A stretch of DNA of 64,000 nucleotides, from contig CALXRI010000003.1 in the NCBI GenBank assembly GCA_944390795.1, positions 7,100 through 71,099 on the forward strand, given 5' to 3'. The notes beneath the pieces were generated by a model. The model made no database searches. It saw only the letters and a list, made by a program, of their open reading frames with translations, and was not told the DNA's origin. The stretch comes from an uncultured Victivallales bacterium (GTDB taxonomy: Bacteria; Verrucomicrobiota; Lentisphaeria; Victivallales; UBA1829). Shown here one piece after another: positions 26,122 to 64,000 of the stretch. The first letter of the stretch is position 1. Every line of letters begins with the position of its first letter. The position numbers and the translations under genes were made by a program.

Positions 26122-26149
26122 TTGACAAAACCGTTTTCCCGAATATAAT
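26122..26149 (+). promoter_or_regulatory. Near-consensus sigma70-type promoter upstream of the LacI-family gene
   Basis: TTGACA (26122-27), 16-nt spacer, TATAAT (26144-49). The spacer contains the inverted repeat AAAAC-c-GTTTT. Confidence 0.5.
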
Positions 26150-26163
26150 AGAAAAAGACTTTG

Positions 26164-26177
26164 GTGAAGCGTTTCAC
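26164..26177. promoter_or_regulatory. Candidate LacI-family operator
   Basis: GTGAAGC|GTTTCAC is a 14-bp palindrome (6 of 7 per half-site) with a central CG. It lies ~15 nt downstream of the -10 box and 23 nt upstream of ATG 26200. Confidence 0.4.
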
Positions 26178-26199
26178 TAATTTTGCGGAGAAGGATGCA

Positions 26200-27258
26200 A
26201 TGAGTGTCACCTTGAAAGATGTGGCCGCACGGGCCGGGGTTGCGGTCAGCACAGCTTCCTATGTCATCAACGGGACCGGACTGCACAAGGTCGGGAAAGC
26301 CGCGCAGGAGCGGATTCTGCGGGCCTCCCGCGAACTGGGCTACACGCCCAATGTAGCGGGGCGCATTCTGAACGGGGGGCGTTCCGGCATGATCGGAATC
26401 GTCATTCCGATGCGGATGCCGCTGGTGTACAGCGAAGTGCCGTCGGACATCTGCGCCGCGTTGCGCGCGAAGGGGTATCAGGTCGCGTTCGGGGTCGCCT
26501 CCACGGCGGAGGAGCGCCTTGCCGTGATGAATGACCTGGCCGTGCGGAAGGTCGAGGGCATGCTTTTCTTCAACTGCGAAAAGGAGCTGGATCCGTATTA
26601 CGGCCGCTATCGGATCCCGTTTCTGCATTTCGACGGCATGGACGGCGAGATCCGGATGGGGCTTGAGGCGGGCCAGCTTCTGGCGATGCGTCATCTGATC
26701 CGGGATCACGGACACCGGAGGATCGGATGTTTTTCCTCTCTGCGCAGTTACAATGTCGCAAAGGTTGCCGGATACCGCAAGGCGTTCCGGGAGGCGGGGC
26801 TGGAGCATTCCACGGACTGGGAGATTGACGCTTTTCAGAATCCCCGCTGGATGGAGGAGACGCTGGAGATGATCCGGAAGCACCGGCTGACGGCGATGGT
26901 CTGCAACAATGACGATTATGCGGCGAATCTGATCGGCATGCTGATGCGGAACGGGATCCGTGTTCCCGACGATTGCGCCGTGATCGGTTATGACGGCGAC
27001 TGCTACGCGCCTTATCTGGCGGTTCCGCTCACGACTGTGGTTCAGCCGGTTTCCCTGCTTGCGCAGCGGATGGCGGAACGGATCCTGGAAAAAATCCGCG
27101 GACGGATTCTTGTCAAGCTGGAGCCGGAGGAGCTTCAGCCGTATCTTTCCATCGGACGTTCCTGCGGCTGCGAACTCTGCGGCGAGCTGCCGCTGCAGAA
27201 CTTTTCCGGATATTCCATTGACCGGAGAGGGCAGAATGCGGAACGAATACCGAAATGA
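26200..27258 (+). CDS. LacI family transcriptional regulator
   Basis: ATG 26200 inside ORF 26161..27258. [27 protein letters not shown]...[18 protein letters not shown], followed by a PBP-type effector domain. Confidence 0.9.
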
Positions 27259-27287
27259 CAGGGCAGAATCAAGGAAAGGAAAAACAG

Positions 27288-28016
27288 ATGAAAAAAAGTC
27301 CATGGTCTTCCCGGCGTTTCAGAGGCGCGGAAAGAAAAGCATTTACGTTGATAGAGCTTCTTGTCGTAATTGCAATCATTGCGATTCTGGCCTCGATGCT
27401 TCTGCCCGCCCTGAACAAGGCAAGGGAGACGGTGAGGAGGATCTCCTGCATGTCGAACGAGAGGAGTCTTGTTCTCGCCTCCAATCTTTACGCCGATGAT
27501 TATTCGGACTGTTTTCCGCCTTATCTGCTGGACGGCGCCGGAGCGTCAGGCATTGCAAACGGATGGATGGGTGCGGTGGCTCCTTATCTCCGGATCCGGG
27601 ATCTCTCCCGTCTGGGAAAAACCGCGTTTGAATGCCCGAGTCGGAGCAAGGCTCCGGAGGGATACTGGTTTATGCATTTTGCAATCAATCCGACCGCAGC
27701 CCCGACCAGGGGGGTGGACGGCGGCTCTTCCGCCCCGAACTGGACGAGCGCAAGCACGATGTGCCGGAGAAGAATCCGGAAACCGGCGACGACGTTTCTG
27801 TATACGGAAAACAAGGCGAGTTTCAAGGACACCACTTCCGCCAACCCGTTTGTCGGAGGCTGGCACAACATTGTCTCCGGCGCGGCTGTCGGGCTGATCC
27901 ATCTGAACCGCGCCAACTGGGGAATGGTCGACGGACACGTCGAGGCGATGAATCTTGCGGAGGCGACGATGCGCCTGGCTCGCTTAAGCACGAACTCCCA
28001 GCAGATGTGGGAATGA
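27288..28016 (+). CDS. Prepilin-type N-terminal methylation-domain protein, H-X9-DG (DUF1559-like) pseudopilin
   Basis: ATG 27288. N-terminus [32 protein letters not shown]-terminal [13 protein letters not shown], which reads H-x9-DG. Confidence 0.85.
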
Positions 28017-28092
28017 GAATGCCTGCATCCGGTTCCCATGATCCGAAAGTGATTTCTTCAGAAAAACAAATCAATATGGAAAGGATGGATTC

Positions 28093-29103
28093 ATGAAAAG
28101 AAAATTATTGTGGGCCGCGGCATTCTGCACGCTGGTTCTCGGGGCACAGGAGTTCCGGAACGACGGACTCAAGACGGCTGATCCCGGCGCCTATTTCTCC
28201 CCGCTCGGCGGAGCCGCGTTTGCAAACGGCACGCTCACGCTTCCCGCGGGCGCGCTCCATCAGGTCGCAACGCTTCCGTTCCCCGCAAAGGGCGGAGAAC
28301 GGTACAGACTCACTTTTCTTGCGCAGATTCAGGGACCGCATGTCATTGAGGAGAATCCGCAGTATGAACGGCTCTTTTTCTTCTTCCCGTGGACCAGAAA
28401 GCGCCTCGGCCAGCCGCTTGCGGCCTGGGAGATTGTCTTCCGCGATCGGAAACGGCAGATTGTCACTCCCGCAAAAACCTTCCTGCAGTTTTTCAACGTT
28501 GTCATGAGCAGGCGGAAGCGCGGATACTGCGAGGAGTTCCATACGCCTGCCGGAACCGCTTCGATCGAAGTGGTGTTCCGGAACGCCAACAAGGAGGACG
28601 CCCTCCTGATCGAGGATTTGAAATTCACGCGGATCGAGTCCGCCTCCACGCTCAACATCAATCCTGATTTTTCTCTGGGGAAAGACAACTATTCCGGCTG
28701 GAACGGGGCGGACAAGGCACGGATTGTCCCGTCTCCCGACGCTCCGGGAAAATTTCTTCTGAATGCCGCCAATACCGGCGTGATCGGCGATGGAATCCCG
28801 GTGAAGGCGGGCGACAGCATCCGTCTCGAATACCGGATGAAAAAAAGCGAGGACGCCAAAGGGAATGCCCGCATGCAGATTTTCACCTACAAGGACAATC
28901 TGCTCCGTGCGGACTGCCGGACCGGACAGCTCGCGCGCACCTTCTTTTTCGGCCCCCGGATGACGGAAGGAAACTATTCCTTCGTGGTGCCCGAAGGCAT
29001 CACGCTGCTGCGGCCTTATCTGGAGAACGTAACCGCCGAATATCTGCGTTTCGTCCGGGACGTCGGTGACGGAAAAGCAAACGCCGGGGAGGTCCGGAAA
29101 TGA
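28093..29103 (+). CDS. Secreted hypothetical protein with two CBM/jelly-roll-like modules
   Basis: 336 aa with a signal peptide (MKRKLLWAAAFCTLVLGAQE). Two modules each carry P-x-K-x-G-(E/D)-x-(Y/I)-R-L near the start (PAKGGERYRLTF; PVKAGDSIRLEY) and a hydrophobic closing strand (LLIEDLKFTRI; AEYLRFVRDV). Confidence 0.6.
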   Translation: MKRKLLWAAAFCTLVLGAQEFRNDGLKTADPGAYFSPLGGAAFANGTLTLPAGALHQVATLPFPAKGGERYRLTFLAQIQGPHVIEENPQYERLFFFFPWTRKRLGQPLAAWEIVFRDRKRQIVTPAKTFLQFFNVVMSRRKRGYCEEFHTPAGTASIEVVFRNANKEDALLIEDLKFTRIESASTLNINPDFSLGKDNYSGWNGADKARIVPSPDAPGKFLLNAANTGVIGDGIPVKAGDSIRLEYRMKKSEDAKGNARMQIFTYKDNLLRADCRTGQLARTFFFGPRMTEGNYSFVVPEGITLLRPYLENVTAEYLRFVRDVGDGKANAGEVRK

Positions 29104-29669
29104 AACGGACGTTTTTCCTGCTTTGCGCGGGATTACCCCTTTTCCTTCTGTCCGCGGCGCCGGAGGAGGAGCAGTATGGCGCAAGAATTTATTTCATGCA
29201 GGATGCTTTCGAACAGGGCAACTACCGGGATTATTTCCAGAAGGCGTTTGCCGGATCCCTCGTCCGCAACTGCGAGGGGAGGAAAGGCACCTTCGCCAAA
29301 GTGACATACGGAGACTCCAGGCCGTTCCGCGTGACGCCGGGAAAACGCTACCGCCTGAGCTTCGACGTTTTCAATCTGGGGGCGAAAGACCTGAAAAACC
29401 ACAATCCCGCGGGGGGAAAAGCGCCATTTCCGTTTTCGTTTCAGTTTCTGGACGACTCCTGGGGTGTGGTCCGCTCCGTAAAAGGAAAGGACATTCCGGG
29501 AGCGACCCTTTCCGAACCTCCGCCTGCCGCATGGTGCGCCCGTTCCTTTGTCTTCGATGCGCCTCCGAAGGCGGCGATGTTCACGTTTCACATCGTCAGC
29601 GCATGGAAAAACAACTGGGGTCCTTATCTGATTGCCAATGTGGAACTTACTGAAATCAAGGAGAAATAA
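29100..29669 (+). CDS. Secreted hypothetical protein with one CBM/jelly-roll-like module
   Basis: 189 aa with a signal peptide (MKRTFFLLCAGLPLFLLSA). TPGKRYRLSF and LIANVELTEI motifs parallel the upstream gene. ATGA overlap with it. Confidence 0.6.
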   Translation: MKRTFFLLCAGLPLFLLSAAPEEEQYGARIYFMQDAFEQGNYRDYFQKAFAGSLVRNCEGRKGTFAKVTYGDSRPFRVTPGKRYRLSFDVFNLGAKDLKNHNPAGGKAPFPFSFQFLDDSWGVVRSVKGKDIPGATLSEPPPAAWCARSFVFDAPPKAAMFTFHIVSAWKNNWGPYLIANVELTEIKEK

Positions 29670-31919
29670 ATGCGTGTCCTTGCACTGCTGCTTTGCATTT
29701 TCTGCGCCGCTGCGTCCGCGGAAGATATTTTCATCGTGAAGGACGGAAAAGCGTCCTCGGTCATCGTTCTTCCGGAAAAAGCGGGATTGACGGAGGAGTT
29801 TGCCGCGGAGCAGCTCTCCTACTGGGTCCGCGAAATCACCGGAACTCCGCTTGAAATTGTCCGCAAACCCTCTCCGGACCGGACCGGCATCCATATCGGC
29901 CGCGCCTTTGCGGAGGGAAAATTCGCCGGCGATCTCCGCTTTCTGGAGGATTCGGAAGGCTTTGCGGTCCGTTCGGACGGAAAAAGTCTGTATCTCTTCG
30001 GCGCCCGTCCGGTCGGGAGCGTATTCGCCGTTTATGATCTTCTGGAAAAGAACACCGACATCATCTGGCCCAGCCTCGTCGAGGGCATGGACCGGGTTTT
30101 CACTCCAGTAAAAAATCTGAAGGCGGGGAAAAGCGATTACCGGGAGAAACCGGCCTTCCGGGAGCGCGCCTGGGGAATCAACAACGGATATTATTACAAT
30201 CATCCCCGGACGGAGTATTTCTGTCTGCGCCTGAAAACAAACGGCGCGAACGCTCCGGAAGCACCGAGAAGGCGCTTCGGTTTTTCCGACGACGATTACA
30301 ACTGCCACAATCTCTGGCGCTATCTTCCATGGGAAAAATATGCCGCGGAACACCCGGAATACTACTGTCTGGTCGACGGGAAACGGGTGAAACCCGGCTA
30401 TCAGGCCAATCTCTGTTTCAGCGCCCCGGGCGGCGCCGAAGAGTTCGCGCGGAATTTCATGCGGGACCGCATTGAGTCCGGACTGCGCTGCGGAATTGCC
30501 GGAATCGGCGTGGAGGACACCAACATCACCTGCTCCTGCAAAACCTGCATGGAGCCGATCCGGCTTCCGGACGGAAAACTTCTTGCATACAAGGAGGATG
30601 AGAAGAAGTTTCTTTCCGCCCGGTATTACCTGTGGCTGAACCGTGTCGCCCGGGAGGTCCGGAAAAAATATCCGGATTTCAGGATCGCCACCATCGCCTA
30701 TATGTTCGCCACCACTCCGCCGCCGGTTGCCATCGAAGACAACATCGTCATTGTCTTCTGTCCCATCGGGAAGAACATGAAGCAGGATTTCAACGGCTCC
30801 ACCAACCGTTCCGTTCTGGAAACTCTCCGGGAGTGGAACCGTCTCTGCTCCTCCTTTGCCGTCTATGAATATTACGGCTGCGCGGCGGATTATCCGCGCC
30901 CGGTGAGCTACGTGATCCGGAAGGATCTCCAGATCATGCGGAAGATGAAGATCTTCAGAATTTATTCGGAGTGGATCCACAAGAACAATGCCGAATATCT
31001 GTCCGCCATGGAGTTCTGGGTGACATGCAGACTGCTCTGGAATCCCGATCTGGATGTGGATGCGCTCCGGGAGGAGTATCTGCAAAAGACCTTCCGCGGC
31101 GCGGCGGGGGAGATGAAGAAGTTTTTCGACATCGTGAGAGACACCTGGTTCGCGGACGGGGCGTCCAGCTACTACTATGACAATGCCGTGAAATCCACCG
31201 CCTACTATCTGCTGCAGGACCGGAAGAACGAGCGGGCCTGCCGGGCCGCCTTGCAGAACGCCGTGGCAAAGGCGGATCATCCGGTCTCGAAACGCTTCGC
31301 CTCCAAAATTCTGGAGATTTTCGAGTCTTATGTGAAGCAGGCCGAAAAGACCATGGTCAAGTCGGAAACCCTGACGGTGCCGCTGATCCGGGATGCGTCG
31401 CTTGCTTCGATGGAGGGAGGCGCGTGGGCAAATGCCGCCGAGGTCACCGATTTCTTCAATCTCATGGCTCCGAAACAGAAGACCGGCGTTCCGGTTTCCG
31501 TCCGGATTGCGCATGACGGAAAGGCGCTGTTCTTCAAATTCCATGCCGAAGGTGTGACTTTCCCGCTGAAAAATCCCGCAAGCATGTTCTCCCGGGAACA
31601 CTGGGAAATCTTTCTCCAGACGGACGCCTCCAACCCCTCGGTTCCCTACTATCACATGGCATTCGACACGGACGGGCGGAAATACAATGCGATTGCCTTC
31701 GGCATCAAGTGGAGCCACCCCTGGAAGGTTTCCGTCCGGAAGAACGAAAGCTCCTGGGATGCGCTCGTGACGGTTCCGACGGAGGGACTGAATCTCCGCA
31801 ACGCTTCCGCGAAACTGCATTTCCTGCACCATTCCTTCCAAAACAAGGTCAACGGAGTCTGGAACGGCGGTCAGGTTCATGATCCCGGCAGCATGACGAA
31901 AATCATACTTGGAAAATGA
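29670..31919 (+). CDS. DUF4838 domain protein (GH20-like fold glycoside hydrolase candidate) with a CBM9-like C-terminus
   Basis: 749 aa with a signal peptide. N-terminal IVLPEKAGLTEEFAAEQLSYWVREITG...FAVR..GKSLYLFGARPVGSVFAVYDLLEK, as in DUF4838 proteins. Starts 1 nt after the previous stop. Confidence 0.65.
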   Translation: MRVLALLLCIFCAAASAEDIFIVKDGKASSVIVLPEKAGLTEEFAAEQLSYWVREITGTPLEIVRKPSPDRTGIHIGRAFAEGKFAGDLRFLEDSEGFAVRSDGKSLYLFGARPVGSVFAVYDLLEKNTDIIWPSLVEGMDRVFTPVKNLKAGKSDYREKPAFRERAWGINNGYYYNHPRTEYFCLRLKTNGANAPEAPRRRFGFSDDDYNCHNLWRYLPWEKYAAEHPEYYCLVDGKRVKPGYQANLCFSAPGGAEEFARNFMRDRIESGLRCGIAGIGVEDTNITCSCKTCMEPIRLPDGKLLAYKEDEKKFLSARYYLWLNRVAREVRKKYPDFRIATIAYMFATTPPPVAIEDNIVIVFCPIGKNMKQDFNGSTNRSVLETLREWNRLCSSFAVYEYYGCAADYPRPVSYVIRKDLQIMRKMKIFRIYSEWIHKNNAEYLSAMEFWVTCRLLWNPDLDVDALREEYLQKTFRGAAGEMKKFFDIVRDTWFADGASSYYYDNAVKSTAYYLLQDRKNERACRAALQNAVAKADHPVSKRFASKILEIFESYVKQAEKTMVKSETLTVPLIRDASLASMEGGAWANAAEVTDFFNLMAPKQKTGVPVSVRIAHDGKALFFKFHAEGVTFPLKNPASMFSREHWEIFLQTDASNPSVPYYHMAFDTDGRKYNAIAFGIKWSHPWKVSVRKNESSWDALVTVPTEGLNLRNASAKLHFLHHSFQNKVNGVWNGGQVHDPGSMTKIILGK

Positions 31920-31932: not shown

Positions 31933-33186
31933 ATGGACATTCAGCCTGACATCGGCGGCTTCATGCGCGACCGCTTCGGCATGTTCCTGCACTGGGGATG
32001 CTATTCGCAGCTCGGCAAAGGGGAGTGGAACATGTTTTTCGAGAGAACCCCCGTGGAGGAATATGCGAAACTCGCCGCGACTTTCGATCCGCGCGCCTTC
32101 AATCCGCGGGAGTGGGCGCGGACTGCGAAGGCTGCGGGAATGCGCTACATGGTGCTGACGGCAAGGCATCATGACGGCTTCTGCCTGTTCGACAGCCGTG
32201 TTTCGGACTTCACGTCCGTGAAATGTTCTCCCGGACACAGGGATTATGTCGCGGAATATGTGGAGGCATGCCGCGGGGAGGGCCTGAAAGTCGGGCTCTA
32301 TTATTCCGAAATGGACTGGCGCTTCCCGGGCTATTTTCACTATCGGACGGATCTGAAAAGCGCCGAGGCCATGCGAAGGCAGTGCCATGAACAGGTGATT
32401 GAGCTGATGAGCAACTATGGCAGAATCGACATCCTCTGGTATGACGGACTCTGGCTGGCGCATGATCCGAAAACGGATGCCGAGATTTCTCCCGCCTTCT
32501 GGCAGGGGAGGGCGCTGAACGGGCGGGTTCGCCGCCTCCAGCCTCAGATCGTCATCAACAACCGACTTGGGGATCCGGCGGATTTCGACACGCCGGAAGG
32601 ACGGATTGCGCCTCCGGCGGATCCCCGGCGTCCCTGGGAATGCTGCAAGACAATGACGCACGGATGGGGATATTACGGGGGTACCCCGGACGTGTTTGCC
32701 CGATCCGCCGCGGAGGTTCTCAAAGATCTGATCGACTGCGTGTCGCAGGGCGGAAATTATCTCGTGAACATCGGCGTCGCTCCGGATGGAAGTCTGCCCG
32801 TCGAGGCGGTGCGGACCCTGCACGAAGTCGGAGAATGGATGGCGGTGAACGGCGAATCCATCTACGGAGCGTCCTCCATTGATTTCCAGAAGGATCATTA
32901 TGCATGGACGCGCAGAGGGGATGTTTATTACTATCATATGTATTCCTATCCGCTGGACGGACGGAAGGTGTTTCCCCTGATGGATGCCAAGGTCAGAGAC
33001 GTTTCCATTCTGGGATCGGATCATGTTCCCCGGGTGGAATATGCGTCGAACGGGCGTCTTGTCATTGCTGATCTGCCGTCTTCGCCGCCGATTCCTCCTT
33101 TTCTGACCTTGCGGATCGAATTTGAATCCGAACCTCGGAAACGGGAGGAAAAAGATCCCGGCGCCTGGCTGACCGGACGGGCGTGA
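31933..33186 (+). CDS. Alpha-L-fucosidase (GH29)
   Basis: ATG 31933 (the track ORF begins at TTG 31909). FGMFLHWGCYS, AGMRYMVLTARHHDGFCLFDS and ILWYDG motifs typical of GH29. No obvious signal peptide. Confidence 0.9.
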   Translation: MDIQPDIGGFMRDRFGMFLHWGCYSQLGKGEWNMFFERTPVEEYAKLAATFDPRAFNPREWARTAKAAGMRYMVLTARHHDGFCLFDSRVSDFTSVKCSPGHRDYVAEYVEACRGEGLKVGLYYSEMDWRFPGYFHYRTDLKSAEAMRRQCHEQVIELMSNYGRIDILWYDGLWLAHDPKTDAEISPAFWQGRALNGRVRRLQPQIVINNRLGDPADFDTPEGRIAPPADPRRPWECCKTMTHGWGYYGGTPDVFARSAAEVLKDLIDCVSQGGNYLVNIGVAPDGSLPVEAVRTLHEVGEWMAVNGESIYGASSIDFQKDHYAWTRRGDVYYYHMYSYPLDGRKVFPLMDAKVRDVSILGSDHVPRVEYASNGRLVIADLPSSPPIPPFLTLRIEFESEPRKREEKDPGAWLTGRA

Positions 33187-34173: not shown

Positions 34174-34198
34174 CATGCGGCATTTTTCCTGCCGCATG
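34174..34198 (-). terminator. Hairpin downstream of the giant GH gene (possible terminator)
   Basis: CATGCGGCA (34174-82) pairs with TGCCGCATG (34190-98), with a 7-nt loop. In the minus sense it is followed by acagaGTTTTCT. Confidence 0.4.
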
Positions 34199-34221: not shown

Positions 34222-37200
34222 TCATCTCAGGACAAAGGCTTTTTCCGCAGTGACGCCGCTGTTGACATTGACAACGCGGAGCGTCCATTTCCCCGCGGGA
34301 TCATTGCATGCCGTCTGCATGGAGATTTCCCCTTTTCCCGTATCGGAGAAGACATTGCGTCTGTACATCGCAGGAGATTTCCCGTCCGGGCGGATCAGGG
34401 AGATATGGAAGGTCTGAGCTCCCGGGGCTCCTTTTTCCGCAACAGCACGGAAGCCGATCTTCATTCCGCTGCCGGGCTTCACGGCTGCGGGAGAGTCGAT
34501 TTCCAGGCCTGTGATCCTCTCCTGCAGAATCGCATAGAGATATCCCCATGCGGGAACCAGTTTCAGGCGGATTTCATCGCCGCTTCCCAGGTATTTTTTC
34601 TCCCGGACATTGTAAATGTGCCCCTTGACCGGCAGTTTTACAACGACATCCTCTCCGCTGTTCATGTCGAAGGTGTTGCCGTCCTCCGTGAATTTCAGCA
34701 GTCCGAAAATGTAGTTGTTTCCGGTATTCCGCAGCATGGTCTGACAGGGATAATCCCGACTGTTTCCGGCAAGTGTGACTTTGCAGCGGATGCGGACATC
34801 GCTTCCGGTCAGAAGACCGCCGATCAGACGCCGCAGATTCCCGCAGAATTCCTCTGCTCCGGAGATTTGCGTGGCACGTTCACCGCCGACGCCTGTCAGA
34901 AGGACAGCCTGATATCCGTTGAGCATCATGTTCATCAGTATGGCTTTCCCTTTGCCGGTATGCCTGACGTTCATGACGGGAAGTTCGCCGCTTCCAATTC
35001 GGAAGGAGCCTTTGATTCCGGGAATTCCGGACTCCGGAACAGCTTTGAGTGTCAGGTCTTTTCCTGTCAGCGCCGGAGCCGCGTCCGTGGACGCGATTCC
35101 GAACAGACGGGCAAGGCGTGCATTGTTTCCGCGTTTCCCGTGTTCATCAAAGGAGCCTGTCAGAAAATCCGCGATCACGGTTCCGCCGTTTTTCACAAAC
35201 AGTTCGATCTTTTCCGTCTGCTCCGGGGAAATCGCCAGCGCGCAGGGGAGGATCAGCACTTTGTATTTTCCGTTGTCCAGGCCCTCCGTCAGCATTTCAC
35301 TGGAGACGAAACGGCAGTTGACATGCAGGTCTTCCAGCAGTGCATTCCAGGCGGAATAGGCGTTCTGCCATTCGCTGATCCCGATTGTCCCCAGCGCGGC
35401 GAAAAGGGAGGGCTGGGAATACAGCACGGCGACATTCTCAGCCGCGGGAGGAGAAGTCAGCACCATTTTCGCGATGCCCTGTTTCATTTCACGGAATACG
35501 CGGCTGTAGACTTCAATGTTCGAATTCAGGGAAAGATCTCCGTTGATTGTGCTTCCGCAGGCATACGCCGCCGCCATGTTCGCACCCCGGAGCAGATCGC
35601 GCCAGAGAATTGCATTCTGATACTGATTCCTGCGGATGGAAGGGTTGACGTAACCGCAGCCCCACTGTCCTTTGATCAGGTTTTCCCCTCCGAAATCATG
35701 CACGAGTTTGATCTGGACTCCGCCGTAGTAGGCGATGAAATTGATTTCCTTCATCAGCTGCGCCCAGTCATAGGTGTAGCCCGGCGGCTGGGTGCCGGAA
35801 ATCCCGCAGCGCACGTTCGGGACAATCCGATTGAGCGCATGCCGGATGAACCCGATGTTCTGATGTGCAAAAACCCCCGCCATGAACACCTTGTGATCCA
35901 GCCACCGGGAAAGATTGTTTTTGTTTTTCAGCTCGCTGAGCTGGCACGGGATCACGTCGTTCCAGGTCCGGAAGGAGCTTTCCCATTCCCTGTTGAGCGC
36001 GTCGAGGGAAGGATACTGTTTTTTCAAACTCTCCCGGAATGCTTTCAGGCAGTGTTCCGAATAGCAGACCGTGCTTCCGAGAAACATTTCGTCTCCAAGG
36101 AAAAAGTGCTTCAGCTGAAAATATTTCCAGTTCTGTTTCCTGGACTGTTCCAGGAAGGATGCCTGAATTTTCCGGTGCCGGGCAGGGTCGGAATAACATG
36201 GATTCCGTACCGGGTCCGTCGGCTTGTCTCCGCGGTAAATCGACTGGAATCCGCTATCATGTCCGCAACCGATGGACAGGGAAGCGAGATTGAGGTTGGA
36301 ATGGGCGCGCTGTGTTATTCCCGCCTGAAAGTATCCGGTGGAGAGCAGGTCGAATCCCAGTTCCTTCAGGATCGGCGTCATTTCCGGTCGTCCGTGCCAG
36401 ACCATGGCTGTCAGGTCCCTGGGGTCGAAATCCTGCCCGGTCAGGGCGAACTCTCCGTGCTGCATTGACACAACACGTTTTCCTGCGATCTGATCGATCA
36501 TGATCCGGTAAAGTTTTGTATAGGGCGCCTGAAGTGTGACGGAACAGGAATTGACTGTCTCCGTCCGGCGCGTTTCCTCGTGAACAATCCGGAAATCCGT
36601 GTCCTCGATCCGGATTTTCAGTCTGCTGCCGGGAACCGGGGTCGGGACATGAATGGAAAAGGAGATCTGCGGAGTTGCATAAATCCTGTCCGCATTGACG
36701 AAGTCCAGACGGATCGGAGAGGTGTCCGGAAGATCCACGCGGGTGGCTCCCGCGTCAAAGACCCTGTTTCCGGAATTGAGCAGACGGTATTCCGCCACCA
36801 TGGTTCCTCCGGGCAGTTCCGGCATGGGAATCCTCAGATTCTGCATGCCGCCCTTGAGCGCGACTTTCCGACGGGTCTGCCCGATGTTCCGGCGGTGCAG
36901 ATCCTTGTAAACGACTTCCATCTCCGCCGCCGTGTCCGTCTCCGCGCGGATCTGGAAGTGCAGCGATTTTTCATCCGCCGTGCATTTCCTGATTTCCGCT
37001 CCTGTTTTCGTTCCGGCGAGCCAGCGCAGCGCCTTCATCATGGGCAGATACGTGTATTCCCAGTAGGGGAAGTCACGGCTGACATAGGCGGGAACGAGTT
37101 CCCCTTTCTGTTCCGGAAGGGAGAAGGGCAGGAGCCGGGCATAGTAATAAAAATTGTCTTTGCTGAACTGCAGGACAGCCGCTTTTCTGTTCCCGTTCCG

Positions 37201-39690: not shown

Positions 39691-40491
39691 TTACATCCCG
39701 CTTTTCTGCCACCAGAAGGGTTTTGTCCGCGCAGTCGTATCGGCCTCCTGATTCGGAACTTCGCTCATCCGCAGCGAGGCGGCATGGCCGTCGCAGAACA
39801 GGAAGTTCGCCTTGCCGTTATGCCGGAAAACGATGGGATCCGTACTGTGCGTGAACGGCTTGTCGTAGCTCAGAAGTCCGCTTTTCGAATCCCCCATGAG
39901 CATCAGCTGCGAAGGATGCTTATAGCCGGACTGTTTGAACATTTTGTAGTCCTTTACAGTTTCCCAGTAATATCTGGTGAACCATCCGTTGTATCCCATG
40001 GTGTAATATGCCTGCCATGAACCCAGCTGACCGACGTCCGCGCTCGGGCATGCGTAGGGGGATTTGAGGATCTCCGTTCCGATGTTCAGATGTGTGCCGT
40101 AACGTTCATTGGTCGCATTCGATTTTTTGGCGGGCGCCGGCCAGTAGGCGCTCATGATATTGCCTGGCAGATAACCGTAAAACGTGCTGGCGGCACTGTA
40201 ATAGGGGAGGAAATCCTGATAGTCGGATGCATAGAAGATCAGACTCTTCCCCGCCTGGGAAAAATTGTTGAGACAATGGAGCGCATGTCCTTTCTCGCGG
40301 ACTTTGCTGAGCGCGGGCAGAAGCATTCCCGCCAGAATCGCGATGATCGCAATAACGATGAGAAGCTCGATCAATGTAAAATTCTTTCCATTTTTTCCGC
40401 TGTTTCGGCGAAACGAGGTGCCTGCATCTGCCATTTGTTTCTCCATTTCTGTCCGGAATTCCGCCGGGCCGTTTATGTTCTTTGCAATCAT
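39691..40491 (-). CDS. Prepilin-type N-terminal methylation-domain protein, H-X9-DG (DUF1559-like) pseudopilin
   Basis: [32 protein letters not shown]-terminal segment and C-terminal HNGKANFLFCDGH. The start is uncertain (Met candidates at 40491 or further downstream). Lies 156 nt upstream of the giant GH gene on the same strand. Confidence 0.85.
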   Translation of the reverse strand: MIAKNINGPAEFRTEMEKQMADAGTSFRRNSGKNGKNFTLIELLIVIAIIAILAGMLLPALSKVREKGHALHCLNNFSQAGKSLIFYASDYQDFLPYYSAASTFYGYLPGNIMSAYWPAPAKKSNATNERYGTHLNIGTEILKSPYACPSADVGQLGSWQAYYTMGYNGWFTRYYWETVKDYKMFKQSGYKHPSQLMLMGDSKSGLLSYDKPFTHSTDPIVFRHNGKANFLFCDGHAASLRMSEVPNQEADTTARTKPFWWQKSGM

Positions 40492-41872: not shown

Positions 41873-41876
41873 GATC

Positions 41877-42950: not shown

Positions 42951-43161
42951 TTGATTTTCTCCGATCGTTTTCCGTTTTTCATGCGGGAGCCATTCTCCCC
43001 GTTCATGCCTGCACACCGCGCGGGGCAGTGGGTGTTCCTGCATCCGGCAGCATGACAGAATTCAGGTTTATCCTTATATATTATATGATGAAACGGAAAA
43101 AACACCAATAGAGATAATGATAAAAACATGAGGATTATAATCATATTGCGGGAAAATACTC

Positions 43162-55566: not shown

Positions 55567-55570
55567 GAAA

Positions 55571-58337: not shown

Positions 58338-58487
58338 AAATGAATCGCCGCGACGCAGGCATGCGCGGTATCGGGGATTTCGCCTGCGGCGACCAGCTTG
58401 CGCAGCTGGACCGCGGCAGGACTGAGAGGAAGGCACGAAATATTTTTGCGATGCAGTGCATCGCGGGACGAGCTGATTTTTTTAATC
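58338..58487 (-). repeat. Inverted-orientation copy of the ~150-nt repeat unit
   Basis: The reverse complement aligns along the whole unit. A 42-nt core (58387-58428; ctctcagtcctgccgcggtccagctgcgcaagctggtcgccg) is identical to both tandem copies, while the flanks carry many substitutions. The copy abuts the IclR stop codon (palindrome CTGATTaaaaaAATCAG). Confidence 0.85.
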
Positions 58488-59262
58488 AGAAGCCATTTCC
58501 CGCGCATCTCAAATGACGCATGACGGAGGCCGCCGCCCGCTTCAGGTGCGCGAGGATGATGCGGTCGCGTGATTCTCCCGCATGTTCGGGAAGTGTATAG
58601 ACTCCCAGTGCGCCGGCAATCTCTCCCCCCGGGGCGAACACCGGCACGGCATAACTGTAAGTCCGGTAACGCTTGCGGAGCGTGATGCAGTATCCCCGCG
58701 TGCGGATCCGTTTCACTTCATCCTCGTAATCGGGCCAGTAAAATTCGGGCATGCCGTTTTCCTCCATGAGAAGCTGCCGGCGTTCCGGTGATGAAAAGGC
58801 GAAGATGACCTTCCCCGTTGCGGTCTCATAGAGATAAAACCGGCGGACGGTTTCCACATCCGGGCGTTGGAGATCGCCGCGCGGGCCGACGTTCACGAAT
58901 GTGGTCCAGACATTGTTTTCCAGAAGGATGTAAGTCATTCCCTCTCCGATTTCTTTTACGTGGCGCAGGAGAGTGTCTGTCACGCGCGACTGGAAACGGC
59001 AGGTCGCGGTCTGATTGCGGTAGGCGATTTTCCTGCACTGGCATCCCGTCGTGTAATTGCCGAATCCGTCTTTTTCGATGTAGCCGCAGGCTGCCATTGT
59101 CTTCAGCAGATTGTGAGCTGTCTTGACGGAAATGCCCTGTTTCTGGGCGAGTGTTTTCAGACGCATGGAATTTCCGCGCGGATTGTCAAACAGCAGAATG
59201 GACAGCATGTCCAGCGCCTTTTTCACCGATTTGACGGGCACTTCATCCTTTTTTCCCCTCAT
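58486..59262 (-). CDS. IclR family transcriptional regulator
   Basis: ATG 59262 (MRGKKDEVPVKSVKKALDMLSILL...). wHTH plus an IclR effector-domain layout, 258 aa. It is the only protein-like part of the 1246-aa track ORF 58486..62226. Confidence 0.85.
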   Translation of the reverse strand: MRGKKDEVPVKSVKKALDMLSILLFDNPRGNSMRLKTLAQKQGISVKTAHNLLKTMAACGYIEKDGFGNYTTGCQCRKIAYRNQTATCRFQSRVTDTLLRHVKEIGEGMTYILLENNVWTTFVNVGPRGDLQRPDVETVRRFYLYETATGKVIFAFSSPERRQLLMEENGMPEFYWPDYEDEVKRIRTRGYCITLRKRYRTYSYAVPVFAPGGEIAGALGVYTLPEHAGESRDRIILAHLKRAAASVMRHLRCAGNGF

Positions 59263-59325
59263 GGAGCATCTCCCCTTTGTTTTCCGGAAACAATAGCCGG
59301 CCGTGGCGGGATTTGCAACTTCATA

Positions 59326-59357
59326 TTTCCCGTAATATGGGAAAATATCGTTTTCCC
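59326..59357. promoter_or_regulatory. Candidate IclR operator in the divergent IclR / GH89 intergenic region
   Basis: TTTCCC (59326-31), N7, GGGAAAA (59339-45), N5, TTTTCCC (59351-57). These form two overlapping inverted repeats that share the central half-site. Confidence 0.4.
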
Positions 59358-59478
59358 GTTGCTTTTCCGTCCCGCCGGACGGATAGTAAAAAGAGAAATC
59401 CCGGACAGGCGCGTTTCCTGCCCCAGTGCGTCTTTTCCGGGGAGAAAGACAATCAGTTATCTGAAAGGAGAGTCTGCC

Positions 59479-61812
59479 ATGTTTAGAATTCTGATTCCGG
59501 AAGAGAGTGCGGGAATTCACCGGATCGCAGCGGATGTCCTTGCCGCCTGCACGCGGGAGATCACCGGACGGACGCCGGAGACCGTTGTGCGCGACGATGC
59601 GGAAAGCGATCTTGTCGTGCTGGGTTCCGATGCGGAAAATCCCTTTGCGCTCGACCTGCTGCTGGCGGGGAAGCTTGACCAGCCCCGTATCCGCTGCGGC
59701 AGCGACGACTATTCCCTGACGAGTCTGCGCGACGGCGGGCGGAAACTGCTTCTGATTGCGGGCGGCCGGGGGAGGGCTCTCCTTTACGGCGTCTATGATT
59801 ATCTGGAACGCTGCGGCTGTTCCTGGTTCTGGGATGCGGATCTTTTTCCGAAACTGGACGAACTGCCCCTGGAAAACTTCCATGTCTGCGGGAGACCCCG
59901 TTTCGAATACCGCGGACTGCGTTATTTCGCGCACCGCAGTCTGCACCGCTTTCAGGCGGAGCACTGGAATCTGGAAGACTGGAAGCGGGAGATCGACTGG
60001 ATTCTGAAAAAACGCCTGAACTTCTTCATGCTCCGCATCGGTCTGGACGATCTCTTCCAGAAGGCCTTCCCGGAGATTGTCCCCTATCCCGCTCCGGAAG
60101 GGAGCTCCGCGACGGACATTCCGCGCTCGTTCAACGACCGCACGCAGTTCTGGAGTCTTGCGGAACGGGGGAGACTGCGGGAGGCTCTTCTCCGGTACGC
60201 GCGGGAACGGGATCTCATGCATCCCGAGGACACCGGGACGATGACGCACTGGTACAGCCGGACCCCGCAGGAGTTCCTGGACGCCGTGAAACCGGAGTTC
60301 ATGCCCCAGGCGAACGAAAAGCAGTACGGCGAACCTTCCGGACTCGTCTGGGATATCCGGAAGGACAGGAATCTGGACAACTATTTCCGGCTTACGGAGG
60401 CGCACATCGCACTCGGCGGTCCTCCGGAACTGTTTCATACCATCGGCCTTGCCGAACGTCTCTGTTTTCACGATCATGCCCGGAATCATGCACTGAAACT
60501 CTACACCTACCGCAGGATCATCGGAAAACTGCGTTCGCGCCATCCCCTCCCGCCGCTGCTGATCGCCTCCTGGGATTTTCTCTGTTCCTGGACGCCGGAG
60601 GAGGTCCGCGGCCTGCTTGCCGAACTGGACGCCGGGAACACTCTGATTCTCGATTACACCTCCGACAGCTGCGATGAACGCAACAACTTCCTGAACTGGA
60701 ATCTGCCCGGAAAGTTCCCTTGGATCTTCGGCATCTTCCACGCGTTTGAATCCAATACGGAGATGCGCGGCAATTACGATGTGATTGAACGCCGCCTGCC
60801 CGTCGCCGCGGAGGATCCCATGTGCAGGGGAATGATCTTCTGGCCGGAGAGTTCCCATACGGACACCCTCATGCTGGAGTACTTTGCCGCCAACGCCTGG
60901 AATCCCGCACATGTCCGGATTGTGGAGTATCTGGAACTTTTCTGCGCCCGGCGTTACCGCGGCGCGGAAGCCGGACAAATGACTCCAGTCTGGCGTGTCA
61001 TGCTGCCCCTGATCCGGAGCAACTACTGGCGTCAGAACCGGCAGATGCCCATACGCGGAGCCCTCTATCAGGATTATGTCTTTCACATTCTTGGGTATGC
61101 CATGACGGATCTTTATCCCGTCTGGCTGGAAAATCATGAAGCAATCACGAGGGAGCTTGGAAGGGCGATTCATGCCGCGCCCGTCTGTTGGCGCATGCTT
61201 GGAAAGACGGACTATTGCTCGTTGAGCGCCCATGCAAAACGGGACTGGATCGATCTGGCGCGCTGCGCCGCTTCGCGTCTCTCCAATTTCGCATGCGGCG
61301 TTCTTGCCCTGCATATGGAGGCGTGGAGGAACGGAGAGACAAATTCCGAATCCGTTCTGGGGTATGCGGAAGCCATCGGCGAACTCCTCCGGATGGAAAA
61401 GATGCTGCTCGGAGCCCATGAGGATTATTCGCTTTATGCCTCTCTTCTCCGGATGCGGGAGAGCGCACCGGTCAATCCCGCTTTCGAGTCTGCCCTGAAA
61501 GGCAATGCGGAAAATGAATACTGCCGCAGTTTTGCAAGCGAACTCTTTGACGCCTGCTATCTGCCGGAATTCGAGTGTTACCGGAAATGGCTGGAGCGGA
61601 AAATCTCTTCCGGGGACCGTTCCCCCTGGCGTTATCCGGAAGCGTTGTTCACCCGGGAGAAGAAACGGATCGAGGACCGTTTTTATGAGACGGCTCTGGC
61701 GGCTTTCGCCCCGGATCGGGAGGACTGCATTGCGGCGCTTCCAGCGACCTTGTCGAATCTGGAAGGGATCGCGGCGAAGCTGCTCTCCGGCATTGGCGCG
61801 ATTTACGTCTGA
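59479..61812 (+). CDS. GH89-like alpha-N-acetylglucosaminidase (divergent)
   Basis: ATG 59479 with AAGGAG at 59465-70, inside ORF 58867..61812. Blocks align by eye to NAGLU-family landmarks: LLYGVYDYLERCGCSWFW; WNLEDWKREIDWILKKRLNFF; LILDYTSDS...FPWIFGIFHAFESN; YLELFCARRYRG. No signal peptide. Confidence 0.7.
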   Translation: MFRILIPEESAGIHRIAADVLAACTREITGRTPETVVRDDAESDLVVLGSDAENPFALDLLLAGKLDQPRIRCGSDDYSLTSLRDGGRKLLLIAGGRGRALLYGVYDYLERCGCSWFWDADLFPKLDELPLENFHVCGRPRFEYRGLRYFAHRSLHRFQAEHWNLEDWKREIDWILKKRLNFFMLRIGLDDLFQKAFPEIVPYPAPEGSSATDIPRSFNDRTQFWSLAERGRLREALLRYARERDLMHPEDTGTMTHWYSRTPQEFLDAVKPEFMPQANEKQYGEPSGLVWDIRKDRNLDNYFRLTEAHIALGGPPELFHTIGLAERLCFHDHARNHALKLYTYRRIIGKLRSRHPLPPLLIASWDFLCSWTPEEVRGLLAELDAGNTLILDYTSDSCDERNNFLNWNLPGKFPWIFGIFHAFESNTEMRGNYDVIERRLPVAAEDPMCRGMIFWPESSHTDTLMLEYFAANAWNPAHVRIVEYLELFCARRYRGAEAGQMTPVWRVMLPLIRSNYWRQNRQMPIRGALYQDYVFHILGYAMTDLYPVWLENHEAITRELGRAIHAAPVCWRMLGKTDYCSLSAHAKRDWIDLARCAASRLSNFACGVLALHMEAWRNGETNSESVLGYAEAIGELLRMEKMLLGAHEDYSLYASLLRMRESAPVNPAFESALKGNAENEYCRSFASELFDACYLPEFECYRKWLERKISSGDRSPWRYPEALFTREKKRIEDRFYETALAAFAPDREDCIAALPATLSNLEGIAAKLLSGIGAIYV

Positions 61813-62774
61813 CTCCCGGCTGTCCGCTGTTTTTCCTTCCCGCAAGGAAACCGTCCTGCATCCGGGAGCTCTTCCTCTTCCGGATCGGGTGCGGCGACGG
61901 GAAATTCCGGAACTGTTCCGTTTCGCGCGGCGGATGGAGAACACCGGAGGTGTTTCCGGAAGACTTTCCACATATGGCTGTAGTTGTAGAACCCGCACTG
62001 GAACGCGATGGAATCGTTTGTCAGAGAGGTTTCGCGCAGAAGCGAGATCGCGCGGTTGACGCGCAGTCTCTGCAGATATTCCGAAGGACGCATGCCCAGG
62101 ATCTGCTTGAATTTCCGCTGCAGTGCGCTCATGCTCATGCCGGAGTGCTTTGCGAGGCTTTCGATGCGGAACGCGCTGTCGCCGAGATGGTCGTTCATCA
62201 TCCGGATCACCGTGTTCAGCGTCCATTTCTGCGACGGGGAATTCTGCGCCCTGCAGTAGTAGGCAAGCAGAATGACCGCGGCGGTGAACAGGGAGATGAT
62301 GATGGTCTGATAACCGGGACGCCGGGTTTTCAGTTCGGAACGGATCGTCCGGAGGAAGAAGGTGATTTTATCCAGGTCGCGTTTCCGGATGTTTCCCAGA
62401 ACTCCTGCAAACGCCCCTCCTTTGCCGCCGCCCGGATAGAGCAGATGCAGGAACGGGGATTTTGTCAGCAGAATCATCGGGATCGGGACACTGGAATTGT
62501 AGAGAATGTTGTAGATGAGCGTTCCCTCCTGCATCTGCGAGTAGGCGTGCTTCATCCCGGGATGGATCAGGAGAAAATCCCCTTTTTTCAGAGAATGGAT
62601 CTCGTTTCCGCAATGATGAGTGATGCCTCCTTCGGCGATCAGGATGATTTCCGAGAAATCGTGGGAGTGAAGCAGAATCTGGGAACAGTTCAGATTGTTC
62701 TCCAGTGTCATTGTCGTGACGGAAATCGGGAAATAGGAATCCTCGATGTAGTTTTTCAGGCTTAGATTCAGCAT
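61803..62774 (-). CDS. AraC family regulator (cupin sensor + HTH)
   Basis: Likely start is ATG 62774 (MLNLSLKNY). HSHDFSEIILIAEG cupin. C-terminal SLAKHSGMSMSALQRKFKQILGMRPSEYLQRLRVNRAISLL...IAFQCGFYNYSHMWKVFRKH. The tail overlaps the GH89 stop by 10 nt. Confidence 0.85.
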   Translation of the reverse strand: MLNLSLKNYIEDSYFPISVTTMTLENNLNCSQILLHSHDFSEIILIAEGGITHHCGNEIHSLKKGDFLLIHPGMKHAYSQMQEGTLIYNILYNSSVPIPMILLTKSPFLHLLYPGGGKGGAFAGVLGNIRKRDLDKITFFLRTIRSELKTRRPGYQTIIISLFTAAVILLAYYCRAQNSPSQKWTLNTVIRMMNDHLGDSAFRIESLAKHSGMSMSALQRKFKQILGMRPSEYLQRLRVNRAISLLRETSLTNDSIAFQCGFYNYSHMWKVFRKHLRCSPSAARNGTVPEFPVAAPDPEEEELPDAGRFPCGKEKQRTAGSQT

Positions 62775-62818
62775 CTCTCCTCCCCGTTTTCCGTAACAGA
62801 TAGACAGCGTTTCGTGAT

Positions 62819-62929
62819 ATTGCAAGAGAAAAACCTCAAAAAAAGCTTATTTTATAGATGTAATTGCTGTTTTTGTAGATTGCAAAAAAAATTTTCCGGT
62901 TATAATTTACAGAAGAAGACATCATTGCA
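62819..62929. promoter_or_regulatory. Repeated ATTGC(A/T) hexamers and a promoter-like elements pair between the AraC gene and the pseudopilin gene
   Basis: ATTGCA at 62819, 62879 and 62924, and ATTGCT at 62863. Direct repeat TTT(A/G)TAGAT at 62851 and 62872. TTGCAA (62880-85), N15, TATAAT (62901-06). Confidence 0.35.
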
Positions 62930-62964
62930 GGATTTCGTTTGTCAATCTTTCAAGAGGGGACATT

Positions 62965-63738
62965 ATGAAAATGAAGAGTCCGTCGTCACTGCAGATCAGA
63001 CATTGTTTCACCTTGATCGAGCTCCTGGTCGTGATTGCGATCATCGCGATTCTGGCCTCCATGCTTCTGCCTGCGCTGAACAAGGCAAAGCAGACGGCGC
63101 AGAACATTTACTGCACAAACAATTCCAAAACCATCATGCAGGGAATGCTTCTCTATGCGGATACTTACCAGTATTTCCCATACCGGGACATCGAAGTCGG
63201 GAATCCGGAAGGAAGATTCTGGTATCAGATGATTTACGGAATGCTGACCGGAGACAAGGGGAATAATCTGAAATTCTATCAGCGGTCCGCTTTTTACAAA
63301 TGTCCCGCCTATCGCTACACGGGCGATATCGGCTATCAAACCATCGCCTATGGGAAAAACGACTGGCTGGGAACAGCCATTTCTGCCTCTACCAATTCTC
63401 CGGTGAGACCGGAACAGGTGAAACGGTCTTCCCGCGTCATTGCCGTAGGAGACAGTGACGATGACGCCTATTTCGGGATGATTATTGCCGACAGCACTTA
63501 TCCGCTGGGCAACCGTCACGGCGGCAAGGCGACGGCGGCGTTTGCGGACGGACATGCGGAAATCGTTCTTTCCCGGGATTGGCTTGCTCCCGGAGTGACA
63601 TATGGCGCCATGGACTATGCGACGGGGACAAGTCTTGTCCATTCCAGCTCTTCCCCCGTCGCCACTACGCTCAGGGCCCCGGAACACCTTTGTAAATGGG
63701 GCGCCCGCGGAGCGGGATACGATTATCTGACAAAATAA
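62965..63738 (+). CDS. Prepilin-type N-terminal methylation-domain protein, H-X9-DG (DUF1559-like) pseudopilin
   Basis: 257 aa. [32 protein letters not shown]-terminal segment and C-terminal HGGKATAAFADGH. Confidence 0.85.
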   Translation: MKMKSPSSLQIRHCFTLIELLVVIAIIAILASMLLPALNKAKQTAQNIYCTNNSKTIMQGMLLYADTYQYFPYRDIEVGNPEGRFWYQMIYGMLTGDKGNNLKFYQRSAFYKCPAYRYTGDIGYQTIAYGKNDWLGTAISASTNSPVRPEQVKRSSRVIAVGDSDDDAYFGMIIADSTYPLGNRHGGKATAAFADGHAEIVLSRDWLAPGVTYGAMDYATGTSLVHSSSSPVATTLRAPEHLCKWGARGAGYDYLTK

Positions 63739-63773
63739 TAACGGAATAACAGAACAGAAAGGATTCATTTGAA

Positions 63774-64000
63774 ATGAAATGCGGAACACTCTCTCTTCTC
63801 CTGGGCGCCGCGCTGCTTGCCGGCGCGCCGTCGGTTTTCTGCGGCGACGCCGCGGGCAAGAATGCCGGTGACAGAATCTTCCTTGCCGATCTTTCCGGGA
63901 AAACTCCCCTTGCGGCGCAATGGCAGGTGAAGGCGAATCTGAAAGTGGAGAACGGGGAACTCACGTTGAAAGGCACGGTGGCAGATCCGAAAGTCACTCT
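63774..64000 (+). CDS. Secreted protein, 5' partial (runs off the window); LamG/DUF1080-like start
   Basis: Hand translation from ATG 63774 gives MKCGTLSLLLGAALLAGAPSVFCGDAAGKNAGDRIFLADLSGKTPLAAQWQVKANLKVENGELTLKGTVADPKVT. It has a signal peptide. It is open to the window end, so it is absent from the track. Confidence 0.5.
   Translation, partial: MKCGTLSLLLGAALLAGAPSVFCGDAAGKNAGDRIFLADLSGKTPLAAQWQVKANLKVENGELTLKGTVADPKVT

Follow-up and report, generated by a model that had tools for sequence, protein, structure and literature searches.

The prepilin-type H-X9-DG/DUF1559 proteins, covered by the models PF07596 and TIGR04294 together with TIGR02532, have about 220–300 amino acids (aa), an N-terminal helix of the FTLIELL type and a C-terminal H-X9-DG-H motif, and have undergone massive paralogous expansion in bacteria of the Planctomycetes-Verrucomicrobia-Chlamydiae (PVC) group. 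They are the largest group of paralogues in Planctopirus (PMC10632474), and two papers have classed DUF1559 as solute-binding (PMC2754498, PMC4807772). Both the family and its expansion had been described before, and the literature labels it either as unknown or as 'solute-binding'. In open-access papers and bioRxiv preprints, no account was found of a role as operon leader, of a link to regulators, cargo or operons of carbohydrate-active enzymes (CAZymes), or of a non-Gly cleavage site. Three genes of this type lie in the 64-kb stretch of DNA (54.5% G+C) analysed here, which belongs to contig CALXRI010000003.1 of an uncultured Victivallales bacterium and is called the window from now on: pp1 (27288..28016, plus strand; 242 aa), pp2 (39691..40491, minus strand; 266 aa as called) and pp3 (62965..63738, plus strand; 257 aa). 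With respect to the described family they show no difference in kind, and what is added is their position as lead genes of operons and the loss of Gly/Ala at position −1 of the prepilin site in Lentisphaerota.

Type IV pilins have been tied to attachment to cellulose or xylan in Ruminococcus albus, Fibrobacter and Caldicellulosiruptor, with genes linked to loci for polysaccharide degradation or to adhesion to the substrate, and those pilins belong to complete pilus loci, are one or few, keep the canonical Gly(−1) and do not show an operon-by-operon expansion. The GspG/PulG major pseudopilin (endopilus) of type II secretion systems (T2SS) resembles the window proteins in its alpha-1 helix with Phe+1, Glu+5 and Pro22 (the structure 5wda was matched over residues 1–59) and in its tie to Sec-exported degradative enzymes. 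However, the heads of the window proteins and their family are not detectably related to it, their genes lie outside a gsp operon (no gsp genes were found in the window), they lack Gly(−1), and GspG/PulG is present as one copy whereas the H-X9-DG family reaches hundreds of divergent copies per genome. In PilB/PilC of Streptococcus sanguinis (PMC9934059) a pilin helix also bears a specificity module, with glycan binding established, but the lectin there is part of the pilin itself and its gene belongs to the pil locus, whereas here the carbohydrate-binding module (CBM) or lectin proteins are separate and Sec-exported and the pilin genes are scattered among catabolic operons. Within the PVC bacteria, the type IV-like pilus genes of the MUL2 locus of Akkermansia (Amuc_1099–1102) are required for mucin accumulation and have been proposed to take part in fucoidan uptake (PMC12418764, PMC13174399). 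They are likewise pilus-type genes for the acquisition of complex glycans, although MUL2 is one conserved locus, which includes PilM and a pilin fold of archaeal type, without per-operon copies and with no H-X9-DG motif reported. Finally, SusD and the surface glycan-binding proteins (SGBPs) of Bacteroidota are comparable in that each glycan locus has one dedicated non-catalytic specificity gene co-regulated with the enzymes, and a 336-aa partner of pp1 matches SGBP-B. Nevertheless, no relation in sequence or fold was found between SusD and the pilin-like protein, which lacks a SusC/TonB partner, and no match to the Pfam models of SusD/SusC was obtained in the window or among the commonest neighbour families. 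The role of SusD counterpart in capture or hand-over, which a first-pass annotation of the window had proposed, amounts to a functional analogy.

That annotation had also described the three genes as paralogues sharing an FTLIELL-type N-terminus and an exact H-x9-DGH motif, and the translations of their open reading frames (ORFs) agree with it on both points. The three proteins have a short basic leader followed by FTLIELL(V/I)VIAIIAILA(S/G)MLLPAL(N/S)K, with the residues Ala, Asn and Cys at −1 in pp1, pp2 and pp3, respectively, as it had read them, and carry H-x9-DGH near the C-terminus (one of the motif-region sequences is HGGKATAAFADGH). A six-frame scan of the 64 kb found the N-terminal motif only these three times, while the bare H-x9-DG has about 24 chance occurrences in the window and just three within the right ORFs. 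TIGR02532 (cut-off 16.3 bits) was passed by pp1, pp2 and pp3 with 31.0, 21.3 and 22.3 bits, and PF07963 (cut-off 21.2) by pp1 alone (31.1), pp2 and pp3 staying just under it (21.0 and 20.8). PF07596/DUF1559 (cut-off 23.3) recognised pp1 (31.8) and marginally pp3 (23.4) but not pp2, with matches that span merely the first 45–65 of the 268 profile positions. Conversely, TIGR04294 (cut-off 19) was passed by pp2 (28.8), whereas pp1 scored 16.9 and pp3 gave no match, despite the literal presence of the motif in all of them. Models of GspG, GspH, ComGC and PilA matched only the first 30–60 residues, with scores far under their cut-offs; for the GspG equivalog TIGR01710 these were 24.3, 21.9 and 26.5 bits, over the N-terminal 50–60 residues only, against a cut-off of 88.85. 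Compared by BLASTP over their full length, the proteins were 30–35% identical to family members. Membership of pp1, pp2 and pp3 in the known H-X9-DG/DUF1559 family is well supported. Among named proteins, the one nearest to pp1 is a 'putative major pilin subunit' of Lentisphaerae bacterium ADurb.Bin242, and homologues at a greater distance are entered as DUF1559 domain-containing proteins from Victivallaceae, Victivallales and Lentisphaeria. All three proteins were seen in identical form on several metagenome contigs (seven in the case of pp2) with unchanged context.

In an alignment of 112 sequences, F19, L21, I22, E23 and P40 of the helix and the pair C54/C116 were invariant, and H205, N210, D215, G216 and H217 were conserved in at least 90%. 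The information content was higher than 3 bits per column at residues 19–60 and of 2–2.5 bits over the H-X9-DG hairpin; at residues 81–200, where indels are present, it was of 0.5–1.7 bits per column. The AlphaFold2 (AF2) model of pp1, with a predicted local distance difference test (pLDDT) of 79, has an N-terminal helix of about 50 residues (21–71) and a small alpha/beta head, and H-X9-DG forms its last beta-hairpin. The family profile matched solved PilA, geopilin, PilE and GspG structures in the alpha-1 helix only, down to E=1.8e-14. In short, the protein joins an assembly module of pilin type, which is constant and made up of the N-terminal helix, the H-X9-DG hairpin and one Cys pair, to a variable and indel-rich head. 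The first-pass view that these are not generic pilus subunits is right for the head, which is paralogue-specific, but not for the N-terminal 40–60 residues, which are as pilin-like as the helices of solved PilA and GspG and contain the invariant F1 and E5 and a Pro22-type LLPAL. Assembly into a type IV filament machine, or docking on it, would be the simplest expectation.

The genomic context of the family was studied in a one-genome-per-species scan that provided 80 loci, 78 of which were long enough for gene calling (39 from Lentisphaerota, 34 from Verrucomicrobiota and 5 from others) and served for the position-resolved comparison. The species of the window itself was not recovered in this collection of species representatives, where the best match had 35% identity. 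A self-trained codon-usage model called 808 genes in them, including 100 family members, and it agrees with independent gene calls except where starts overlap; greedy picking of the longest ORFs was discarded, as it chose antisense shadows in the 54.5% G+C window. As controls we used 140 genes of the same loci located at least five positions away from any family member. In Lentisphaerota the gene following the pilin-like one (+1) is co-directional with it in 41 of 46 cases, with a median gap to the next gene of 18 bp, and heuristically carries a signal peptide in 28 of 46, as compared with 7 of 44 genes at −1 (Fisher test, p=1e-5) and 67 of 316 among all genes (p=1e-7). In the 78 pooled loci, the 62 downstream neighbours included Laminin_G_3 (five), glycoside hydrolase (GH) families GH20 and GH42 (three each) and CBM9 (three), as well as PL8, GH106, rhamnosidase, DUF4838 and M4 peptidase, and positions +2 and +3 in Lentisphaerota add GH42, GH20, DUF4838, AXE1, melibiase, a carrageenase-like propeller and MFS sugar transporters. 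The 72 upstream neighbours, in turn, contained GntR (14), Peripla_BP_3 (12), AraC (four) and LacI (three). GntR, at 14/72, compares with at most 1/140 in the distant controls (p=1e-6), among which no GntR, LacI, GH or CBM family was matched twice. Verrucomicrobiota relatives displayed no enrichment of signal peptides at +1 (9/26 versus 74/296). The 'PVC-type' scope given to these genes by the first-pass annotation is therefore too broad, since the pattern is strong in Lentisphaerota and undetectable in those relatives.

The same arrangement was found in Pfam-annotated contigs of seven other genomes, where 11 of 12 family members lie in operons with GH, CBM, sulfatase, DUF4838 or BNR genes and 10–11 of the 12 have GntR, LacI or AraC just upstream or divergent. 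Examples are GntR-pilin-GH20b/GH84; GntR-pilin-CBM96/LamG-pilin-...-GH32; AraC divergent from pilin-GH123-...-BNR-PIG-L; GntR-pilin-pilin-sulfatase-GH130-...-GH106; and LacI-pilin followed by a 1517-aa CBM4_9/CBM9 protein. Besides, pp1 is 68% identical to an orthologue that stands, as pp1 does, in the order LacI, pilin, 336-aa, 190-aa, DUF4838 and GH29, and two pilins heading the GntR, CBM96/LamG ... GH32 cassettes of different genomes are 85% identical, whereas paralogues within one genome share 30–36%. High identity of the pairs across species together with low identity between paralogues implies that the paralogues are old and that each one travels with its own operon.

From these data it is well supported that the Lentisphaerota members head sugar-regulated operons for Sec-exported proteins that bind or degrade glycans, and equally that the pairing of pilin and cargo is stable across species. 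The regulator-pilin-GH layout is met again in related genomes, and the first-pass description of these genes as operon-linked accessory modules of glycan-degradation loci is supported by the asymmetry of their flanks, absent from the controls, the 11 of 12 members in glycan operons and the inherited pairs. As a separate observation, two pilin-like genes occur in some operons, in tandem or interleaved with cargo (loci L100, 10001–11456, and L091, 10001–14674; L007 has three members), which suggests that more than one such subunit per operon is possible.

The layout across relatives suggests that each glycan operon is provided with a specificity subunit of its own, an arrangement not described so far. 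The reading that we put forward, tentatively but as a quite possible one, is that each pilin-like protein acts as the adaptor subunit of its operon on a type IV filament or T2SS machine which all of them share and whose genes lie elsewhere. According to it, a LacI-, GntR- or AraC-type regulator would sense its sugar and the operon would then produce the pilin-like subunit and, along with it, Sec-exported CBM or lectin proteins and enzymes of its own. This subunit, an adaptor and not a bulk subunit of the fibre, would enter the shared type IV filament or T2SS-type machine, and its head would couple the exoproteins of the operon to the filament, so that they are either exported across the outer membrane or tethered at it. 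Processing, the use of a shared machine, contact with the cargo and the direction of transport are what we infer here, and cargo export, cargo tethering or glycan capture may each be the role. The ORFs tested in the 64-kb window yielded no T2SS or type IV pilus machinery, so the first-pass claim that it encodes no secretin, ATPase, platform protein or prepilin peptidase is upheld for those ORFs. None was seen either in the Pfam summaries of the commonest families among the genes from 1.07 Mb of related loci, and a Walker-A pattern scan for secretion ATPases over 1.2 Mb of loci gave one match, which is FtsK-like. From the window and the related loci, the pilus or secretion machinery is presumably encoded elsewhere in the genome.

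Several points weigh against the adaptor reading. The canonical Gly(−1) is absent from the three window proteins and present in only 2 of 51 Lentisphaerota relatives, which leaves processing, and hence filament assembly, presumptive. The head of the pp1 model gave no match to a solved fold in a Foldseek search of the PDB, the N-terminal helix alone being matched. About 30% of the Lentisphaerota members have no detectable signal-peptide protein in the three downstream genes (35 of 50 have one), and some of the +1 genes encode cytoplasmic enzymes or transporters (SHMT, Ldh_2, MFS, SSF). The gene caller and the signal-peptide detector are home-made heuristics, and the Pfam summaries comprise the 25 commonest families per set, so that the share of CAZymes is a minimum and the controls may contain singleton GHs. 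Furthermore, T2SSs are not known to have cargo-specific pseudopilins.

A different reading, glycan capture and import, places the substrate-induced pilin on a retractile type IV-like fibre that would bind the glycan, directly or through its CBM or lectin partner, and reel it to or through the outer membrane. The association data fit it as well as they fit the adaptor reading, and the neighbour of the pilin is often a non-catalytic binder. Directly 3' of pp1 lies the gene of a secreted non-catalytic protein of 336 aa (28093..29103, plus strand; signal peptide MKRKLLWAAAFCTLVLGA), which has no Pfam or NCBIfam match. Its AF2 model, of modest pLDDT (64), consists of two beta-sandwiches, and the best Foldseek match in the PDB was the tandem CBM22-1-CBM22-2 of Xyn10C (4xup, E=6e-12), followed by Bacteroides SGBP-B (7kwb, E=2e-10) and, more weakly, CBM4-2 and CBM51. 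The predicted structure thus backs the 'CBM-like' label that this protein had received. It is also a near-orphan, with five homologues in 5.8 billion clustered proteins, seemingly from one narrow lineage. Elsewhere the neighbour of the pilin is LamG, CBM9, CBM96 or CBM_4_9, and in some cassettes the pilin is accompanied by sugar transporters of the inner membrane (SSF, MFS). MUL2 provides a PVC precedent (PMC12418764, PMC13174399), and a Kiritimatiella genome paper reports that TonB-dependent uptake systems were not found (PMC5148204). On the other hand, no lectin-like fold was detected in the pp1 model, MUL2 is one PilM-linked locus per genome with no operon-by-operon expansion and is not known to be homologous, and the non-Gly residue at −1 raises the same doubt about processing. 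Overall we hold glycan capture and import to be rather doubtful.

The residue at −1 bears on a further alternative, in which the protein would not be processed at all and would remain a periplasmic protein anchored in the inner membrane, with a decayed site, the helix as signal-anchor and the head as an operon-specific binder, folding helper or sensor, without any filament. Characterised prepilin peptidases require Gly(−1) and rarely accept Ala. The −1 residues of 51 Lentisphaerota members were S (9), K (9), R (6), T (4), N, I, Y and Q (3 each), G (2) and A (1), with D and C also occurring, as compared with G (21) or A (17) in 38 of 39 Verrucomicrobiota. Gly was found at −1 in 3 of the 118 closest homologues, and in 134 further representatives there were 19 G and 7 A. 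The leaders of Lentisphaerota often have only 3–5 residues (MKK, MKKN, MKKS). The almost free −1 position, the scarcity of Gly, the minimal leaders and the absence of machinery genes nearby all fit a plain anchor. However, beside a free −1, Phe+1, Thr+2, Leu+3, Ile+4 and Glu+5 vary little or not at all, and Phe+1 and Glu+5 are invariant in both Lentisphaerota and Verrucomicrobiota. A buried invariant Glu would be pointless in a plain anchor, while in pilins it serves assembly, and the boundary of conservation exactly at Phe+1 suggests that Phe+1 is still the mature N-terminus. Because conservation starts exactly at Phe+1 and Glu+5 is invariant, cleavage at the Phe+1 bond by a peptidase with relaxed −1 specificity appears, judging from the sequences, more likely than no processing, and we regard the unprocessed anchor as unlikely. 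The lineage split at −1 is by itself sharp across loci L007–L086, with G or A in Verrucomicrobiota and almost any residue in Lentisphaerota.

It could also be argued that these are generic, interchangeable pseudopilins, all feeding one pseudopilus, and that their adjacency to CAZymes merely reflects CAZyme-rich genomes. The family is indeed huge: a word-indexed homologue search returned at least 8000 candidates, and when 1.84 billion cluster representatives were searched exhaustively with a profile, there were 386,090 matches at E<=1e-3, 248,174 at E<=1e-10 and 71,478 at E<=1e-30. Near a member, related genomes have about 27 further copies per Mb, so that three copies in 38 kb are ordinary, and the notion of a local hotspot was rejected. 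Nonetheless, the directional asymmetry (regulators at −1; signal-peptide and CBM or GH proteins at +1) is absent from the controls of the same loci, the pilin-cargo pairs are conserved across species in spite of about 30% identity between paralogues, and the head is hypervariable, all of which makes interchangeable subunits very improbable. Lastly, that these are solute-binding proteins of transporters, as the Pfam name SBP_bac_10 and some Planctomycetes papers (PMC2754498, PMC4807772) would have it, was rejected as hardly conceivable on context and fold, given that no ABC permease or ATPase is among the commonest families at −1 or +1 and that the model displays a pilin-type helix with a small head and not a periplasmic-binding-protein fold.

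The cassette of pp1 is a tight co-directional run of six genes, as defined by Pfam and independent gene calls: LacI, pp1 and the genes for the 336-aa, 189-aa, DUF4838 and GH29 proteins. The gaps are of 29 bp between LacI and pp1 and 76 bp between pp1 and the 336-aa gene, followed by a 4-bp overlap, 0 bp and 13 bp, and no strong terminator was found inside the cassette. Its first gene (26200..27258, plus strand; metagenome-contig gene call) encodes a LacI-family sugar regulator of 352 aa with Pfam LacI and Peripla_BP_3 matches. A sigma-70-type consensus, TTGACA-16 nt-TATAAT (26122..26149, plus strand), directly 5' of the LacI gene, matches at 12 of 12 positions and is, by consensus match alone, a candidate promoter of the cassette. 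Full agreement of this kind is uncommon, and elsewhere in the scanned region only 9/12 was reached. After the 336-aa gene come a secreted 189-aa protein (29100..29669, plus strand; signal peptide MKRTFFLLCAGLPLFLLSAA) that has no Pfam match and is kept in the orthologous cassette, with a putative CBM-like fold judging from its sequence pattern, and a secreted DUF4838 protein of 749 aa (29670..31919, plus strand; PF16126, E=2.9e-47; signal peptide MRVLALLLCIFCAAASA). The last gene call (31933..33186, plus strand) corresponds to a GH29 alpha-L-fucosidase of 417 aa (PF01120, E=5.5e-78; N-terminus MDIQPDIGGFMRDRF), which is probably cytoplasmic because it has no signal peptide. Secreted DUF4838 proteins, sometimes with GH2_N or GH67_N-like regions, were also observed in pilin-led cassettes of several genomes (L087, 3478–6186 and 12361–14610; L091, 4828–7350; L099, 7620–9974; L100, 5251–7668), and this recurrence points to an uncharacterised glycoside-hydrolase-like family typical of pilin-led operons.

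The second cassette lies on the minus strand and runs from two GFO/IDH/MocA oxidoreductase genes (40790..43043), without signal or Tat motif, and a 67-aa ORF to pp2 and then to a secreted protein of 1770 aa (34222..39534; signal peptide MKKIIWPLFMIALSLSAA), 156 bp downstream of pp2. This giant protein, whose length is that of the gene call, contains a GH42-like catalytic region near the C-terminus (PF02449 and PF08532) and would be the cargo of the cassette, next to which no regulator was found. The scanned region has no stronger terminator-like structure than a GC-rich hairpin of 13 pairs at 34170–34202, located 20 bp past the stop of the 1770-aa gene, where the pp2 operon probably ends.

In the third one, pp3 is divergent from the gene of an AraC-family regulator of 323 aa with cupin and HTH_18 domains (61803..62774, minus strand; Pfam and gene call). 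It is followed by a signal-peptide protein of 205 aa, of which only the start is contained in the window, cut by its end (63774..64000, plus strand; MKCGTLSLLLGAALLAGAPSVFC). This protein has no Pfam match, and its earlier 'LamG-like' label received no confirmation. On longer contigs (L095, L096) the pp3 operon continues from this secreted protein to one of 1158 aa and then to a CE7/AXE1 esterase. The GH89/NAGLU-like protein of 777 aa (59479..61812, plus strand), which has no signal peptide, is outside the pp3 transcription unit, and it was rejected as a cassette member, as it lies beyond the divergent AraC gene and the pp3 operon runs away from it. The first-pass statement that each pilin-like gene is upstream of secreted glycan-active genes can hence be kept for the pp1 and pp2 runs and for the signal-peptide gene after pp3, but the GH89-like gene is not 3' of pp3, and neither it nor the GH29 gene encodes a signal peptide. 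Its placing of a regulator near two of the three cassettes was accurate, with LacI preceding pp1 and AraC divergent from pp3; an IclR-family regulator (58486..59262, minus strand) diverges from the NAGLU-like gene. Beyond the latter, IclR is followed by a second LacI. A minus-strand ORF of 1246 aa at 58486–62226 is an artefact, as its last ~258 codons (58486–59262) are the real IclR gene and the rest is antisense to the NAGLU-like gene.

As for the remainder of the window, its first 26 kb contain housekeeping genes. A unit at 11295–13866 (plus strand) has a GntR-like regulator (weak match), a GFO/IDH/MocA oxidoreductase and a 115-aa gene, without any pilin-like gene, from which it follows that not every regulator-led unit carries one. 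Between the second and third cassettes there is a co-directional cluster of 12.6 kb (44058–56671, minus strand) for polysaccharide biosynthesis and not degradation, with asparagine synthase AsnB, several GT2, two TOD1/MUCI70-like glycosyltransferase-like genes, GT61, FkbM methyltransferase, DegT aminotransferase, NAD epimerase/dehydratase and GT4.

DUF1559/H-X9-DG is among the largest PVC families of unknown function, with more than 70,000 clusters at 50% identity, and its reproducible link to sugar-regulated exoprotein operons gives a concrete hypothesis for it. In guts, digesters and sediments, complex glycans are broken down by Lentisphaerota and their relatives, which do so without outer-membrane uptake of the Sus type, and the link bears on how enzymes leave these cells and how glycans enter them. 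The pilin-like lead gene could serve to delimit glycan operons, as SusC/D pairs do in Bacteroidota, and the lineage-wide non-Gly residue at −1 beside invariant Phe+1 and Glu+5 poses a sharp question about prepilin processing. In its full extent, the proposal would be that glycan use in Lentisphaerota passes through one shared type IV filament machine, re-armed by hundreds of substrate-inducible, operon-encoded and cargo-matched adaptors, all of them processed by a prepilin peptidase that no longer has the universal Gly(−1) requirement; this we consider possible though doubtful. If true, such a re-armed filament would be for these bacteria, on a pilus basis, what the SusC/D logic is for Bacteroidota, and would bring with it a new class of prepilin-peptidase specificity.

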